From Squalus acanthias (Eukaryota): a DNA stretch of 64,000 bases. Position numbers and translations under genes: made by a program. The stretch is taken from NCBI GenBank assembly GCA_030390025.1, contig CM059432.1, forward strand, positions 7,068,001 through 7,132,000, written 5' to 3'. Positions within the stretch are counted from its first letter, which is position 1; every line of letters begins with the position of its first letter. The notes under the pieces were generated by a model. The model saw only the letters and a list, made by a program, of their open reading frames with translations, had not been told where the DNA came from and searched no databases. Shown here piece by piece: positions 3,051 to 64,000 of the stretch.

Positions 3051-3949
3051 AGCGTCAAATGCAGCATGAAATGGACATTGTTGCCACTTCAGCTTAAAGG
3101 ACATTCTGATGGGCCAATTATTGAGTGGCATAGCCAGCTGAAAAAAAGCTGAAGCCAAAAGCCCACCATGTTGGCTCTGTGCTACAGCAGACATTATAGC
3201 CTAGAAATGACTGCTTGCATTAGTGGCATATAAATGTGTTTAAAGCTCGTGTGCTAGCATTGCAACAAATCTCAGAGCTCATACTTGCTGTAGAATAAAC
3301 TTCTGCAATGCAGATCCACCTTCACCTTTAACAATAAGTGCAAAGAACTCAGACTTCTTAATCAACAAGATAGAAATCATCCATTCAGCTGTCTCTGCTC
3401 ATTCCCCCCTTCTGCCTGCCCACACCAAACCTCCTGCTTCCAGCTCACCTCATCCTAGTCCTGAACTCCCATCTCTCTCTAATTTCTCTTCCATCTGCCC
3501 CCATTTCCTCTCCAACCTCACATTGTCCATGAGGCCCACTCCCTCTCCCTTGACCCCCTTCCCACTAAACTGCCGAGCACCCAATTTCCCTTCCTGGCCT
3601 CCATGCTAGCTGTTATTGTAATCCCAAACCATCTCTACCAATGGCTTCTCCACCCAGCCCCACACAGTCACCTCAGGACTTCCCAAAGGATCCATCCTCC
3701 ACTCTTCTACATCTACAAGCTGCTCCTTGGCAGCATCATCCACAGACTTCTACATGTACACCTAGCTTTAACTCTCCACCATCTCTCAACTCCTCCACTG
3801 CCTCTGTCCTGTTAGACTCTCTGACATCTAGTCTTGAGTGAGCCACAGTTTCATCCAGCTAAGCATTGGAAAGACCATCGATATCTTTGTCATCTCCAGA
3901 CTTGACTATTCCAGTGCTCTGCTGGCCAGCTTCCCAATATCTATAAACT

Positions 3950-4082
3950 TCTGACAAAAGGTCATCGACCTGAAACGTTAACTCTGTTTCTCTCTCCACA
4001 GATGCTGCCTGACCTGCTGAGTGTTTTCCAGCATTTTCTGTTTTTATTTCAGATTTCCAGCATCCGCAGTATTATGCTTTCG
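3950..4082 (+). mobile_element. Short Penelope-terminal-repeat-derived insertion with hammerhead-like motif; 12-bp TSD
   Basis: TATCTATAAACT at 3938-3949 and 4083-4094. The sequence matches the reverse complement of about 61940-62072. Confidence 0.8.
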
Positions 4083-4219
4083 TATCTATAAACTACAGCT
4101 CATTAAAAAACCCTGCTGCCTGTTTCCTACCTCGCGCCAAGTCCCACTTCCCCATTGTCCCTGTTCTGCTGACCTACATTGGTACCTGGTCCGCCGACAC
4201 CTCACATTTAAAATTCTTA

Positions 4220-18552: not shown

Positions 18553-19332
18553 TCTTCAATGTTCCGAACGTATTGTCACCACCCAACCGTGAGCCCGGCA
18601 TAATTTGTTTGAATCCTTTCAGTCTGATTTCCAACCTATTCACAGCACTGAGGATTCAACCACATCCTGTAACATAGCAACTGGCAGCTTATCCTTCATC
18701 GTTGTCATTGACCTATCTGCAGCGTTTGGGGTGGTTGATCACTCATTCCTGGTCCCCACCCTCACCTCCAAAGTCTATTTGCATGATACTAACAAAACAT
18801 GGGTCCATTTTCTATCTTCCCAATGTAGTCAGTATATCTCATCCAATGGCTTCATCCCCTGCCGCTGCAGTCACCTCGGCATGCCATCCTTGGACTAATC
18901 TTTTTTGATACATCTACATGCCACCCCTTAGTGACACTTGGTGTCACCTTCCATATGTATGCCGATGACACCACCCGTTGACTCCCCCCCCCACCCCGAC
19001 AACTTTCCACCAGCACCCTTACCTCCATGAAAACTGCTATGATATCTGGCATCAGCTTCATGCAGGCTGAACCCTTTTGTCCTGAGCTGAACTTCAAATC
19101 CCACTTTTCTGGGTGTCGCCAATACCACCTGCTTCTGGAGAAGTGCCTTTCCACGTCTCCAATATTCCCCTACCGCCATTGAGGCCATCATCTACCCATT
19201 CCTCACCTCAAGGTGTGATTGCTCCAATGCTTTTTCGCCTGGCCTCCTGAGCTGCACCTTATATAAAGTTCACCTCATATTCCATATCGTACCAGTCGCA
19301 CAATCTAACGCCCCAACCCTTGCTGACTTCTG

Positions 19333-19418
19333 AAATAAAAACAGAAAATGTTGGAAATACTCAGCAGGACAGGCAGCATCTGTGGAGAGAGAAACAGAGT
19401 TAACGTTTCAGGTCGATG
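19333..19418 (-). mobile_element. Short Penelope-terminal-repeat-derived insertion; 17-bp duplication
   Basis: ACCCTTGCTGACTTCTG at 19316-19332 and 19419-19435. Confidence 0.8.
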
Positions 19419-19462
19419 ACCCTTGCTGACTTCTGTTGGCTCCCCATTCCCCAGTAAATCAA

Positions 19463-41940: not shown

Positions 41941-42641
41941 GGGAGTCATTTTAACTTTTGGAGATGGTGTAAAACGGGACAATATCAGATCGCCCGCCCG
42001 TTATACACCCTGCGCGATTTGTAATGGACAGGAACATCAGGCGGGGTGCAAAACTGAGGGGGTGCCTAACGGGCAAGGTGTAAAACGGAGGAGGTATATG
42101 ACGGGCAGGGTGTTTAACAGAGGAGGTTTATGATGGGCGGGGTGTATAATGGAGGAGGTATATGATGGGTGGGGTGTATAACAGAGGAGGTATATGATGG
42201 GTGGGGCGTATAATGGAGGAGGTATATGATGGGTGGGGTGTATTACAGAGGAGGTATATGATGGGTGGGGTGTATAATGGAGGAGGTATATGATTGGAGG
42301 AGGTATATGATGGGCGGGGTGTATAACGGGTGGGGTGTATAACGGAGGAGGTATATGATGGGTGGGGTGTATAACGGGCAGGTTGTATAACGGAGGAGGT
42401 ATATGATGGGTGGGGTGTATAATGGAGGAGGTATATGATGGGCGGGGTGTATAAGTGAGGAGGTATATGATGGGTGGGGTGTATAACGGGTGGGGTGTAT
42501 AAGTGAGGAGGTATATGATGGGTGGGGTGTATAACGGGTGGGGTGTATAATGGAGGAGGTATATGATGGGCGGGGTGTATAACGGGCGGCCAATCGGATG
42601 TCGCCTGTTTTACACTATTGACAAAAGTTAAAATGACCCCC
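41941..42641. mobile_element. TIR element with about 70-bp inverted termini and an internal minisatellite
   Basis: GGGAGTCATTTTAACTTTTG versus rc GGGGGTCATTTTAACTTTTG (19/20); similarity continues to gcccgttatacaccc. Confidence 0.8.
42088..42588 (+). repeat. G-rich minisatellite with a 32-bp unit and a 16-bp subunit
   Basis: (ggaggaggtatatgatgggtggggtgtataat)n interspersed with gggtggggtgtataac. Confidence 0.92.
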
Positions 42642-43231
42642 TCTATTTCTGCTTGCCCGCGCATCATTTTACCTTATTTACCTTTGTAATTTTACCTAAT
42701 CCGTCTATTCTAATTACATAGAATTTACAGCACAGAAACATTCGGCCCAACTAGTCTTTGCCGGTGTCTACGCTGCACACGAGCCTCCTCCCACCTTACT
42801 TCATCTAACTCTATCAACATACCATTCTATTTCTTTCTGCCTTATGTACGTACCGAGCTTCCTCTTAAATGCAGCTGTGATCTTAAGTGGTGCTTTCTAT
42901 AAACTAACCTTTATATATAAATTCTTCTTGCCTATTTTCTTCTTCATTTTGGCTTCTGCCACTTCCGAGAAAGAAGAACTCGCTCTAAAGGTTTTTTTTT
43001 CAGCAAATGACATCCAAAGTCTGAATCTTGCAATTTTCATTGATGGGCATGGTCACATCATCGACTGGGCCAGCCAGCCAGCCTTGGTCGAGCAAATGTA
43101 TTACTGCTCAACTCTTCAGCTGTCCTTCGGAGCCCATCACACCCAGATAGCCAGACCTGACCACAGCACGGTAAAGGTTCATTTTGTAAAGGTCAATTCT
43201 TTCATTGTTAATTATTATTCCTTTCAAACAG

Positions 43232-48390: not shown

Positions 48391-49218
48391 AACCTAACTG
48401 TGACTGGACTCCAATACTGAATATGAGAATGATCAGTATATGTAACAAGGTGCTGCCCTTGAACTTCCAGGTCAAGGTTGGAATTTTATTGGCATGAGTT
48501 TCTCACCAAGTAGCTCATAAGTAACTCTAGCTCGCACACCATTTTCAGCTGTTTGAAACTGTATTTTTGAATGACAACCAAAACCTCAAATCAGTTTTTT
48601 TGAAGGGAAAAGCGAGGCCAACTACTACATTAATGAAGTCCAGAGAATGAACGCAATTACGTTAAGCCATCCACAAATGCTTTTTTAAAAATTTTAATCT
48701 TAAATCCACTACTTTGAAAAGGAAATATTTTCGTGCGAATTGCGCTTGATCCTAAATGCCATAAAGATCACAAGATAGACAGTAATGTGAAATGCTGTTC
48801 AGCCTGCCATACTTCATCTATCTGGAACAAAGCACCAGACTGCCCCATCGCAGCATCCAGCAAACTCTTAACTGGTCCCAGAAGTTCAATCTCCATCGTG
48901 GTCACTTCGTGAAGAACCTCTGTAATCCGTCTTCAATTTGCCTTTCACTCGTTTGTGCCTGTGCTCTTCATTCGGCTGTCCTGGTTTAATGAGATGGAGT
49001 GTTCCAGGTTTACCTTTTCTAAACAGGTCACAGTGTTAACACGTGAAACCATAAATAATGTCTCCCGCCCCCACACCTCCCTTGTCTATTTTCGTAGCTA
49101 AAAATTCCAACTTTTTCCAGCCTGTCCTTCTATCTCACAAACGGGTTTGGCGGCTCTTCTCTGCATTGTCCTCGGGACACGAATGTCTCTGTGGCCAGTA
49201 CTGGACGCAATAATCAAG

Positions 49219-49429
49219 ATAAAAACAGAGAATACTCTGCAGGCCAGGCAGCATCTGTGGAGAGAGAAAAACAGAGTTAACGTTTCAGTTCTGGCGAAAG
49301 GTCACCGACCTGAAACGTTGACTCTGTTTCTCTCTCTTCGCAGATGCAGCCTGACCTGCTGAGCGTTTCCAGCATTTTCTGTTTTTATTTCAGACTTCCA
49401 GCATCCGCAGTATTTTATTTTTGTGTTGT
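49219..49429. mobile_element. Penelope-terminal-repeat-derived insertion with inverted (head-to-head) arrangement
   Basis: A - copy at 49219-49288 abuts a + copy at 49286-49421. Flanks AATAATCAAG (49209-49218) and AACAATCAAG (49430-49439). Confidence 0.8.
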
Positions 49430-49461
49430 AACAATCAAGGTGCTGTGCGACTAGAGCACTG

Positions 49462-57033: not shown

Positions 57034-57600
57034 GTGTCAGCTGTGGGCCCAGTGGGTAGCACCCGAGCCTCTGAGTCAGAAGATCGTGGGTTCTGAAATC
57101 TAGGCTGACACTCCAATGCAATACTGAGGGAGGTGCCGTCTTTCGGGTGAGACGTTAAACCGAGGCCCCATCTGCCCTCTCGTGTGGACGTAAAAGATCC
57201 CAGGGCCACTATTTCGAAGAAGAGCAGGGGAGTTCTCCCCGCTGTCCTGGGGCCAATATTTATCACTCAAACAACACTAAAACTGACTAAAATAACAACA
57301 GAAAACGCTGGAAAAACTCAGCAGGCCAGGCAACATCCATGGAGAGAGAAAGAGAGTTAACGTTTCAGGTCGAAACCCTTCGTCGGAACTGACTATCTGT
57401 TCATTATCACATTGCTGTTTGTTGCTGTGCCCCTCAACCAACATCACTAAATCAGTTCATTATCACGTTGCCGTGCGCATATTGGCTGCCGCATTTCCTA
57501 CATTACAACAGCGACTACACTTGAAAAGTACTTATTTGGTTGTAAAGCGCTTTGGGACGTCCTGTGGTCGTGAAAGACGCTATATAAATGTCTTTCTTTC
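57034..57600 (+). mobile_element. Deu-domain tRNA-SINE interrupted by a Penelope-derived insertion
   Basis: The SINE consensus is broken at 57289/57387. Confidence 0.8.
57290..57391 (-). mobile_element. Short Penelope-terminal-repeat-derived insertion with hammerhead-like motif; 9-bp duplication
   Basis: AACTGACTA at 57281-57289 and 57387-57395. Confidence 0.8.
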
Positions 57601-57930: not shown

Positions 57931-58255
57931 AAGATGTACTCCTTTCACTGATAGTCACTCTTTCAGACCTCAGATTGATATAAAATGAAGAAACCAGTAC
58001 TGTAAGTTCTCCTTAATTCCATCACTTCCAAACATAGATAAAGTCCTGTAAGACATGATGCGCATGGGTTCAGAAGGATTCTTCAAATATGCAGTGACTT
58101 TCCGAATTCCTCTTGCGTGCAGCAGATTTAATCTTCAGTTCAGGAAATTGCCTTTTGGACGGTCCGAGCATTGTGCAGAAATGTCTCGGCATTTCACGTG
58201 AGGAAAAACGTACGGATATCTAGGAATGATAACAGGGCAGTAATCTAATTTCTGA

Positions 58256-58342
58256 AATAAAAACGGAAAATGCTGGAAATACTCAGCAGGTCAGGCAGCA
58301 TCTGTGGAGAGAGAAACAGAGTCAACGTTTCAGGTCGATGGC
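58256..58342 (-). mobile_element. Short Penelope-terminal-repeat-derived insertion; 8-bp duplication
   Basis: ATTTCTGA at 58248-58255 and 58343-58350. Confidence 0.75.
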
Positions 58343-58449
58343 ATTTCTGAGTTCATGTTCGTTAGCAACTGCAAGAGATCTTGTGATTTATTACCCGAAC
58401 ACCCTGGATTAGATTATTTCATAGAAATCGTTCAAAATATGTAATATGC

Positions 58450-61934: not shown

Positions 61935-62645
61935 AAAACAAAAGCAAAATACTGCGGATGCTGGAAATCTAAAATGAAAACAGAAAATGCTGGAAACACT
62001 CAGCAGGTCAGGCTGCATCTGTGGGGAGAGAGAGAAACAGAGTTAACGTTTCAGGTCGATGACCTTTTGTCAGGACTGGAAGGAGTTAGAGATATAACAG
62101 GTTTTAAACAAGTGCAGAGGCAGGGAAGGGGAGGAAAGAACAAAAGGGAAGGTCTGTGATGGGGTGGAGGGCAGGAGTGATTAAATGGCAAAAGGGATGA
62201 TGGTGCGAGGCAAAATGGGGTGGTAATGGGACAAGTAAAGAAAGAAAAGATTAATCTAAAGGAGCTGTAAGTGGTAATAGCACAATCATTACCTGCACCT
62301 GCTGCCAGAGAAAATGGGAGCAGTGGTTATGACCTGAAATTGTTGAACTCGATCTTGAGTCTGGAAGGCTGTGAAGTGCCTGGTCGAAAGATGAGGTGCT
62401 GTTCCTCGAGCTTCCGTTGAGCTTCATTGGAACAGTGTAAGAGGCCGAGGACGGAGTGGGATGGAGAATTAAAGTGGGAAGCAACCGGAAGCTCAGGGTC
62501 ACGCTTACGGCATGAATGGAGGTATTCAGCAAAACAATCACCCAATCTGCATTTGGTCTCCCCAATGTAGAGCAGGCTGCATCGTGAGCAGCGAATACAG
62601 TGTACTGAATTGAAAGAAGTACAAGTAAATCGCTGTTTAAGGGGT
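61935..62645 (-). mobile_element. Penelope-like element 3' fragment: GIY-YIG endonuclease remnant plus terminal repeat
   Basis: ORF 62327-62650 (FTCTSFNSVHCIRCSRCSLLYIGETKCRLGDCFAEYL...PVASHFN), followed downstream by the repeat found as solo insertions. Confidence 0.85.
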
Positions 62646-63623: not shown

Positions 63624-64000
63624 CTCCTGTTCCTATGTTCCTAATCAACACGGAGTATTTGAAAAATCAACTGCTGCAGTAGGCTGAGTTTAGTGAGACC
63701 CGTACACCAACAACTATGATGCTTACAAATGTGTTTCCTTGCGATAGTTCTTAAATGATGCATTAATCGCAGAAAAAATGCAAAAAGAAAAGATACAACT
63801 TGATTTTATATACAATCTACTCCTCTTGCTTTGAAGTTGCTTCATTCAAGTTACCTGCTCGTTCAACTTGAAATTGTGCAAAAAAAGTCTCCTGTTGAAA
63901 ATGCATTGGAACTTAAATGCTTAGTTCAGTCCTCTTAATTTGACGTAGAGTCATCCAGACTCGAGTCGTCGTTGGCTTGTTCTCTCTACACAGATGCGGC

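Follow-up and report, generated by a model that had tools for sequence, protein, structure and literature searches.

The short inserts represented by positions 3950–4082 of the window (the whole 64,000-nt stretch of DNA analysed here) are almost certainly separately inserted pieces of a Penelope-like element (PLE). On balance, they appear to be dead-end copies of the leader of a linear RNA, the long copies of the family having come from an endless, likely circular, RNA. Both RNA template species are deduced from genomic DNA only.

Window copies and their target duplications

Searching the window by BLAST with the insert at 3950–4082 (the focal copy) recovered the other five copies. The original prediction had listed five short copies, each with a duplication of its own, and one copy linked to a GIY-YIG open reading frame (ORF); all six were found where it had placed them, and the duplications agreed. 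Three things escaped that reading: the hammerhead, the presence of two 3′ ends, and the inversion within the 49219 copy. Element coordinates were counted from hammerhead core C3 as +1 (3951 in the focal copy), with the predicted cut at +29|+30 and the ATG at +52; A and B are the two 3′ end sites described below. The features of the window are:

3938..3949, plus strand: left target-site duplication of the focal copy, 12 bp, from direct-repeat comparison
3950..4082, plus strand: solo mini of type B, subfamily 1, spanning about −1/0 to +131, within a presumed L2-like repeat
3951..3983, plus strand: motif for a minimal type I hammerhead, of the kind in PMC4209133, the core reading CTGACAA and so altered at one base
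4002..4082, plus strand: first codons of the PLE ORF (ATG at +52), in the same frame as the 998-codon ORF of locus L173
4083..4094, plus strand: right target-site duplication of the focal copy, 12 bp, from direct-repeat comparison
19316..19435, minus strand: solo mini of type A, insert 19333–19418, starting within stem II, with microhomology at both ends
49209..49439, both strands: head-to-head pair, A arm minus, B arm plus
57281..57395, minus strand: solo mini of type A, subfamily 2, insert 57290–57386, splitting a presumed SINE
58248..58350, minus strand: solo mini of type A without hammerhead core, insert 58256–58342
61935..62645, minus strand: long 5′-truncated copy of type B with ORF end, 3′ UTR, hammerhead (C3 at 62073) and tail
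62074..62110, minus strand: candidate core promoter or RNA start, with TTAAAA near −34 and, surrounding the predicted A(−3) start at 62077, CCAGT(T/C)C
62330..62644, minus strand: C-terminal GIY-YIG remnant of 105 aa that shares 78% identity with the end of P0001, the full-length protein

As read from the sequence, the focal hammerhead motif comprises stem II AGGTC/GACCT, GAAACGTT, a predicted cut at 3979|3980, and AACT. The 3950 and 62073 copies have CTGACAA, with one hammerhead core base altered, and the core is missing from the 19333 and 58256 copies; Rfam at the gathering score gave no hammerhead hit within the window. In the focal copy, end site A lies at about 4043–4051 and a tail of roughly 35 nt runs from there to end site B.

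The other duplications were 19316–19332/19419–19435 (17 bp), 49209–49218/49430–49439 (10 bp, 1 mismatch), 57281–57289/57387–57395 (9 bp) and 58248–58255/58343–58350 (8 bp). The stretch 49219–49429, previously taken as a single 210-bp unit, is a head-to-head inverted pair, with an internally deleted A arm on the minus strand (49219 to about 49286) and a B arm on the plus strand (about 49287–49429). The 57290 copy, assigned to the second subfamily, ends at 57386 rather than at 57391 as first given, positions 57387–57391 being microhomology inside the duplication. Flank comparison gave no clear target duplication around the long copy at 61935–62645. Its ORF remnant by itself had no match in Pfam, and the candidate promoter stretch at 62074..62110 can also be read as a 3′ splice site.

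Empty-site paralogs were found for two of the five window sites, 3950 (17 uninterrupted matches) and 57290 (53), and for none of the remaining three flanks among the loci examined. The repeat split by the 3950 copy (window 3758–4217) we take to be L2-like, and the one split by the 57290 copy (57055–57600) to be a SINE. The window holds many CR1-like, L2-like and SINE copies (named in part by presumption), a G-rich tandem array with 16/32-bp units (41944–42669) and, at 63980–64000, the start of a diverged piece that resembles the mini core and is cut off by the window end.

Parent element

A search with the ORF remnant of the window led to L173, a full-length element with one 998-codon ORF for a reverse transcriptase (RT), a Cys-rich linker and, at the C-terminus, a GIY-YIG domain. 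Its repeats are 98% identical and lie 3,195 bp apart. The Pfam matches RVT_1 (E 3.8e-6) and GIY-YIG (E 0.028, or 0.0013 on the C-terminal piece) both fell narrowly below the Pfam cut-offs. The 5′ repeat reads through A and B, and through the whole mini sequence, into the ORF, so that a mini consists of the hammerhead and the first codons. The family shows what is expected of endonuclease-positive PLEs: a single ORF with RT and C-terminal GIY-YIG (in L173), pseudo-LTRs (pLTRs) arranged as direct or inverted partial tandems with an optional tail of 30–40 bp, and in the pLTR a minimal type I hammerhead motif, predicted and read from the alignment. The motif CKRRRCNTC, which precedes GIY-YIG in P0001, agrees with the Neptune linker as defined in PMC8557442, and this linker points to a Neptune-type PLE with a minimal hammerhead as the parent. 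The available text of a recent preprint reports only Neptune and Poseidon among vertebrate PLEs (bioRxiv 10.64898/2026.07.22.740005).

Genome-wide copies and sampling

In the 3.7-Gb genome, the two subfamily patterns had 32,061 and 28,950 exact core matches and reversed controls had 0; the high copy number originally suspected is borne out by these more than 61,000 matches. The density had been put at about one copy per 13 kb in the window. Forty random 10-kb stretches (400 kb) held 13 events, equal to 17 arms, that is about one event per 30 kb and roughly half the density of the window.

Sample 1 comprised 94 of the first 100 listed pattern-1 matches and sample 2 most of the first 84 pattern-2 matches, all within the initial 12 Mb of contig C1; 90 and 81 anchored arms remained once duplicates had been removed. 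The exact 25–26-nt match required in these samples favours young copies. Solo copies numbered 37 A and 32 B in sample 1, and 42 A and 17 B in sample 2. Copies at the same place and segmental duplicates (L001, L075, L077, L084, L097, L117, L118, L161, L202, L209, L211, L261, L268 and L274) were left out of the counts. The insertions at L116–L118, like those at L096–L097, look identical, share their flanks and lie nearby on C1, as segmental duplicates do. The 5′-end statistics exclude the best-hit loci L002–L030 and loci selected by ORF, and arms ending before +80 were dropped, including the A arm of the 49219 copy of the window. At the edge of its locus, L002:14–228 is an older head-to-head pair, 74–75% identical, with ends at +105 and +95 that were not typed as A or B.

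Exact duplications of at least 8 bp flanked 43/56 inverted events, 19/38 short solo A and 17/43 short solo B copies, against 1.3–2.2% of shuffled flank pairs (1.5% in the null for inverted pairs). Duplication frequency is thus above chance, and repeats of this length, far more frequent than in shuffled flanks, uphold the earlier view that the copies are separate retrotransposition events and not decay products.

Two 3′ ends

Strict 3′ ends clustered twice, at A (+93 to +98, 32/35) and at B (+129 to +135, 34/37), about 35 nt apart. The two 3′ ends have counterparts in an anole PLE, namely its 'tail' and a pair of RT start sites seen in vitro (PMC11167929). We are confident that A and B are two internal RT start sites.

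Inverted pairs

Each of the 57 inverted pairs combined one A end with one B end (57/57), and the duplication was 14–15 bp in 29/47. Microhomology at the outer junctions was 1.7 and 1.4 nt, against 0.68 and 0.48 nt in shuffled controls, with 1–4 nt enriched at both. The longer arm was A in 27 pairs and B in 22, with 1 tie (50 pairs), and 15 A arms were longer by more than 30 nt; because the A arm has no tail and is nevertheless often the longer one, fold-back copying cannot explain the inversion. Arm lengths were coupled (35 pairs with two short arms, 10 with two long arms and 5 with one of each; p 1.6e-6), and in L304, L306, L309 and L319 the same rare deletion junction was crossed by both arms. 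Subfamily calls agreed in 52/55 typed pairs, and site +9 agreed in 16/21 against 10.0 after shuffling; since 3/55 and 5/21 pairs differed, some pairs may use two RNAs. In all 5 pairs discordant at +9, the A arm had G and the B arm had A. Taken together, the pairs make it highly probable that both target nicks prime cDNA, mostly on one RNA species.

5′ ends and the stop near −3

Arms starting at −14 or later accounted for 45/90 in subfamily 1 and 34/81 in subfamily 2 (pooled 79/171). At +3 to −5, 5′ ends reached 3.45 per 100 nt in subfamily 1 (90 arms) and 2.99 in subfamily 2 (81 arms), against 0–0.47 at +13 to +46 and −15 to −120, a peak of about tenfold (p 2e-8 to 3e-11 and 7e-7 to 4e-11, respectively). 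It has a downstream shoulder and an upstream cliff; subfamily 2 is without any end from −19 to −100. Ends were mapped to the best of 48 reference sequences, and mapping to a single yardstick agreed; an all-against-all method, confounded by inverted arms and chance extension, gave a blurred peak (p 0.11 against the upstream side), and the random 400-kb sample by itself, too small at 17 arms, showed no peak (2 arms at +3 to −5). The excess of 90–140 bp copies is real and a smooth continuum of 5′ truncation did not appear; the sharp peak with its upstream cliff is at odds with the proposal that the minis are extreme 5′ truncations.

No 5′-end peak was present at the predicted hammerhead cut site (0.29 and 0.32 per 100 nt, equal to background), and RNA cleaved at +30 was rejected on this ground as the main mini template. 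A shared first exon or a cap G at mini 5′ ends was likewise rejected: the 40 listed short solos with duplications have no extra 5′ sequence in common, many retain the acceptor's own AG, and no cap-derived G was seen by eye among the short solos.

The peak position carries CCAGTTC in 38/47 long reference copies. This sequence fits the general initiator consensus, and in many copies TTAAA(A) precedes A(−3) by about 31 nt. It can also be taken for a 3′ splice site, and helix I has its first base here (AGTT, −3 to 0). TTAAA(A) near −34 is missing from some long copies, L173 among them, and three copies with clean duplications (L113, L143 and L083) start upstream of −3, at −10 to −13. When two leader copies were folded, neither structure was significant (z −1.68 and +1.38). 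In Drosophila virilis Penelope, transcription starts further upstream, by 46 nt and a 75-nt intron whose end falls at helix I (PMC2377424, PMC4209133); with a start lying upstream behind an intron in that element, −3 may not be the transcription start here. The stop near −3 is very likely a property of the RNA molecule, either its true 5′ end, which we prefer, or a bound barrier; that it marks the transcription start we rate as evenly balanced. A possible second cluster of 5′ ends at −245 to −261, near a T-rich stretch after the stop codon (L016, L066, L071, L078, L151 and others), may be an alignment edge or a second start.

ORF-traversing copies and the template of long copies

The segment just past B had 1,180 matches in subfamily 2, from which 75 hits at 67 loci (6 chosen for visible double hits) were sampled; 25 run into the ORF and 50 are short. 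Among ORF-running copies that reach +12, 0/21 end within −14 to +12 in subfamily 2 and 1/8 in subfamily 1 (alone p 0.13). Pooled, 1/29 ORF-traversing copies end there against 62/154 at first passage (p 3e-5), with a background expectation of 2. These copies exceed unit length, so their template should have no end at −3. Since a second pass on a circle meets no folded RNA, the first-pass partner arms of long or junction-crossing arms were counted as a control, L275 and L311 (more than 50 nt from the joint) being left out: 3/25 stop within −14 to +12 (p 0.002). As partner arms seldom stop, the stop is set at the level of the molecule, and a chance pause of each enzyme at −3 was ruled out. The second-pass and partner-arm counts bear on the circular template raised tentatively for metazoan PLE hammerheads, in a study that ascribes single motifs to truncated PLEs and whose available text has no end maps (PMC4209133).

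Cut-site scars, such as ligation might produce, were not in excess in long copies (7/200 long, 11/119 short). Two copies, L091:1474–2132 and L101:1426–2176, have deletions of 22 and 16 nt with the 3′ edge exactly at +30; such deletions occur in 2/200 long and 0/119 short copies. Four presumed-RNA contig sets aligned to L173 had their depth mostly at about −6 to +133, and one contig joined +237 to about −4; depth follows copy number, and contigs cannot show starts or circles, so these alignments are given no weight. In the anole study, RNA-seq reads ending at the cut site were not found (PMC11167929). We lean slightly towards a circle, rather than a multimer or a template jump, as the source of the long copies.

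A different reading has a single template type (a circle or a long read-through RNA), a subset of which would bear a barrier just upstream of −3, such as a splicing factor on CTAAC-TTTTT-CAG or a bound, folded hammerhead, with twin priming unchanged. Such a barrier would act as the template boundary does at which telomerase stops. A barrier on the molecule also predicts coupled arms, RNA already paired to cDNA would be barrier-free on a second pass, and the sequence at the peak could pass for a 3′ splice site whose end is at −2. The peak, however, lies on the far 5′ side of the structure, and RT stalls usually fall 3′ of a structure; the branch-like CTAAC is missing in many long copies, yet both subfamilies peak alike; and the form of the barrier in which each enzyme pauses by chance is excluded by the partner arms (3/25). 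Even with the D. virilis intron ending at helix I (PMC4209133) and PLE RTs placed, in abstracts, as sisters of telomerase, we hold this reading to be rather unlikely.

Alternatively, processing might produce the −3 end, through an exonuclease that stalls at helix I or a splice onto a first exon of very small size, the long copies then coming from multimers or from template jumps between cleaved monomers. The peak does coincide with the first base of helix I, the deletions in L091 and L101 end exactly at +30 as an imprecise jump would give, and partial tandems are common among ORF-bearing copies. Against it stand the 5′ ends of the 40 listed short solos, which show neither a common extra sequence nor, in many cases, the loss of the acceptor's AG, and the at least 70 nt of upstream sequence kept in 32/38 of the deleted loci described below, as an upstream promoter needs, although pyrimidine-rich microhomology could also explain this retention. 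We regard processing as improbable, and the linear leader with a true 5′ end near −3 remains the preferred reading.

Deleted retrozyme-like units

Elsewhere in the genome are 38 junction loci in which the ORF start, at +200 to +283, is fused to upstream sequence between −9 and −242, mostly via 1–9 nt of microhomology. The deleted units measure 229–515 nt, and 34 distinct junctions were counted in the 38 loci, 4 of them recurring at two loci each, which points to repeated birth and direct mobilisation by the PLE rather than to local satellite growth. The recurrent units have the junctions +283 to −102, +270 to −100, +235 to −101 and +243 to −103. All (38/38) keep the sequence up to +200 to +283, of which the search anchor forced only +159, and 32/38 keep at least 70 nt upstream. 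Duplications of at least 8 bp were found in 21/37 against a null of 7%, and two junctions occurred in one locus in 6/38. The copies end at A or B, or run on into a further unit. In size and origin (150–500 nt, PLE-derived), in exceeding unit length and in being mobilised with duplications, the deleted units agree with what defines a non-LTR retrozyme. Three more were found among 30 loci of subfamily 1.

The loci L260, L267, L299, L300, L303 and L309 and 32 further ones (for example G000:C1:18719494) carry dispersed, permuted deleted units with the hammerhead. These are up to about 2.5 units long and account for some two thirds of the sampled ORF-start hits. L302:1571–2109 is a tandem deleted unit with junctions from +194 to about +1161 and from +1232 back to the hammerhead region. 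The ORF-start segment that nearly all mobilised deleted units keep, from +135 to +220, is absent from the window, and so is any deleted retrozyme-like unit.

Status of the minis

In a tree of 134 rows (145 columns, weak), mini and long labels changed 32 times against about 36 after shuffling, so the minis form no clade; the set around the subfamily 2 copy of the window comprised 44 rows from long copies and 15 from minis. Within a subfamily, minis and long copies are not told apart by any site, and apparent allele differences were rejected as a sampling artefact. Genome-wide, the subfamily 1 pattern gave 12 head-to-tail pairs at unit spacing (3 + 9) and 1,732 head-to-head pairs. The head-to-tail repeats with a hammerhead in each unit that mark non-LTR retrozymes are lacking in the window minis. 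A SINE would have a master-copy lineage of its own, with an internal Pol III promoter or a head from a structured RNA; the minis form no such lineage, their unit consists of pLTR and ORF-start sequence throughout, and no master-copy flanks are shared among them.

That the minis are an independent self-copying SINE or retrozyme family is therefore very improbable. Fixed length classes, own duplications and high copy number would suit such a family, but variants are shared with long copies subfamily by subfamily, head-to-tail arrays are almost wanting, each mini has one hammerhead, often broken, and the segment from +135 to +220 is missing; the non-autonomous SINE or retrozyme first suggested fails on these points. 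Plain smooth 5′ truncation, its inverted arms arising through fold-back or antisense self-priming (the latter as in PMC3846280), can be dismissed, unless the peak is a product of the exact-match sampling, in spite of the heavy truncation, inverted 5′ copies and one-end tails known from PLEs (PMC8557442) and of the flat random sample, given the tenfold peak and cliff in both subfamilies, the strict A+B rule, the fixed stagger and the longer A arms.

Proposed cycle

The preferred reading may be set out as follows. An RT–GIY-YIG protein would nick both target strands about 14–15 bp apart, the pattern being observed and the mechanism deduced from it. Each nick would prime one cDNA, at A (+93 to +98) or at B (+129 to +135), aided by a primer–template match of 1–4 nt. 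Retention of both cDNAs would let their ends join as a head-to-head A+B pair, and loss of one would leave A or B solo, often with a shortened duplication. The start sites and the downstream segment that is probably needed (+135 to about +220) would be located where the ORF begins. Copying a linear transcript whose start is near −3, the RT would run off the 5′ end after 100–135 nt, so that minis would be complete, dead-end cDNA copies of a leader of roughly 100–135 nt of a linear, uncleaved precursor RNA. Long and more-than-unit copies would need a template without that end, most likely a circle made by double hammerhead cleavage and ligation. Minis, which have no upstream region, second hammerhead or downstream segment, would not propagate; internally deleted units that keep those parts are mobilised and are the real retrozymes of the family.

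A bolder reading, somewhat less likely than not, would take the family as a genomic record of the PLE cycle: a dimeric RT–endonuclease with a 14–15-bp stagger and two start sites on one RNA, each strand using one of them, uncleaved linear RNA giving leader-length inserts only and hammerhead-made circles giving long and more-than-unit copies, with deletion circles that keep the upstream region, the hammerhead and +135 to +220 becoming new retrozymes dozens of times.

Comparison with known systems

In L1 twin priming, two primed cDNAs also give an inversion, from different, non-overlapping parts of the RNA; here, both arms cover the same stretch from two fixed sites. In retroviral strong-stop DNA, a primer near the RNA 5′ end gives a short run-off product, which is transferred and not integrated.

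Canonical endonuclease-positive PLEs share with this family pLTR fragments, head-to-head copies, a tail on one arm and short duplications (8–10 bp in rotifer; PMC8557442; PMC3846280). Here the A+B combination is strict (57/57), the stagger is 14–15 bp, and nearly half of the sampled arms are 100–135 nt long with a common 5′ end. In the rotifer paper, the inversion is put down to antisense self-priming, and the solo pLTRs to recombination or deletion (PMC3846280). Several features are shared with Poseidon PAc of Anolis carolinensis, in which two internal start sites in the ORF start define the tail, both strands are nicked and extended, a dimer is predicted, RNA downstream of the start sites is needed and uncleaved RNA serves as template (PMC11167929); the retention of +135 to about +220 in deleted units parallels this need. 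PAc belongs to another clade and was seen to have no strand bias in site use and no primer–template homology, in contrast to the one site per strand and 1–4 nt match found here; leader-length solo inserts and a two-template cycle are not in the study text examined (PMC11167929).

The minimal hammerheads of metazoan PLEs have the same motif, most of them single and some in opposite-strand pairs 100–700 bp apart (PMC4209133). Animal non-LTR retrozymes are PLE-derived, hammerhead-bearing and non-coding, and the deleted units of 229–515 nt fit this description, including tandems and duplications (PMC7229834; bioRxiv 10.64898/2026.07.22.740005). They differ in being dispersed, permuted and ended at A or B, and the window minis differ in having one hammerhead and no tandem arrangement. 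Neither the 5′-end peak, nor the invariable A+B pairing, nor the contrast at second pass was described in the literature searched, mostly open with few subscription journals. The inserts belong to a known kind of object, and their end statistics go beyond truncation.

Implications

The inverted repeats, tails and partial tandems of PLEs, the purpose of their hammerheads and the origin of animal retrozymes are open questions in the papers cited. This family offers countable predictions on them: each strand should use a single start site, the stagger should be constant, the RNA 5′ end should lie near −3, circles alone should be productive templates, and the minimal cis region should span about −70 to +220. 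For annotation, tens of thousands of SINE-like inserts of 100–135 bp would be by-products, and the true non-autonomous units would be a separate, rarer class.
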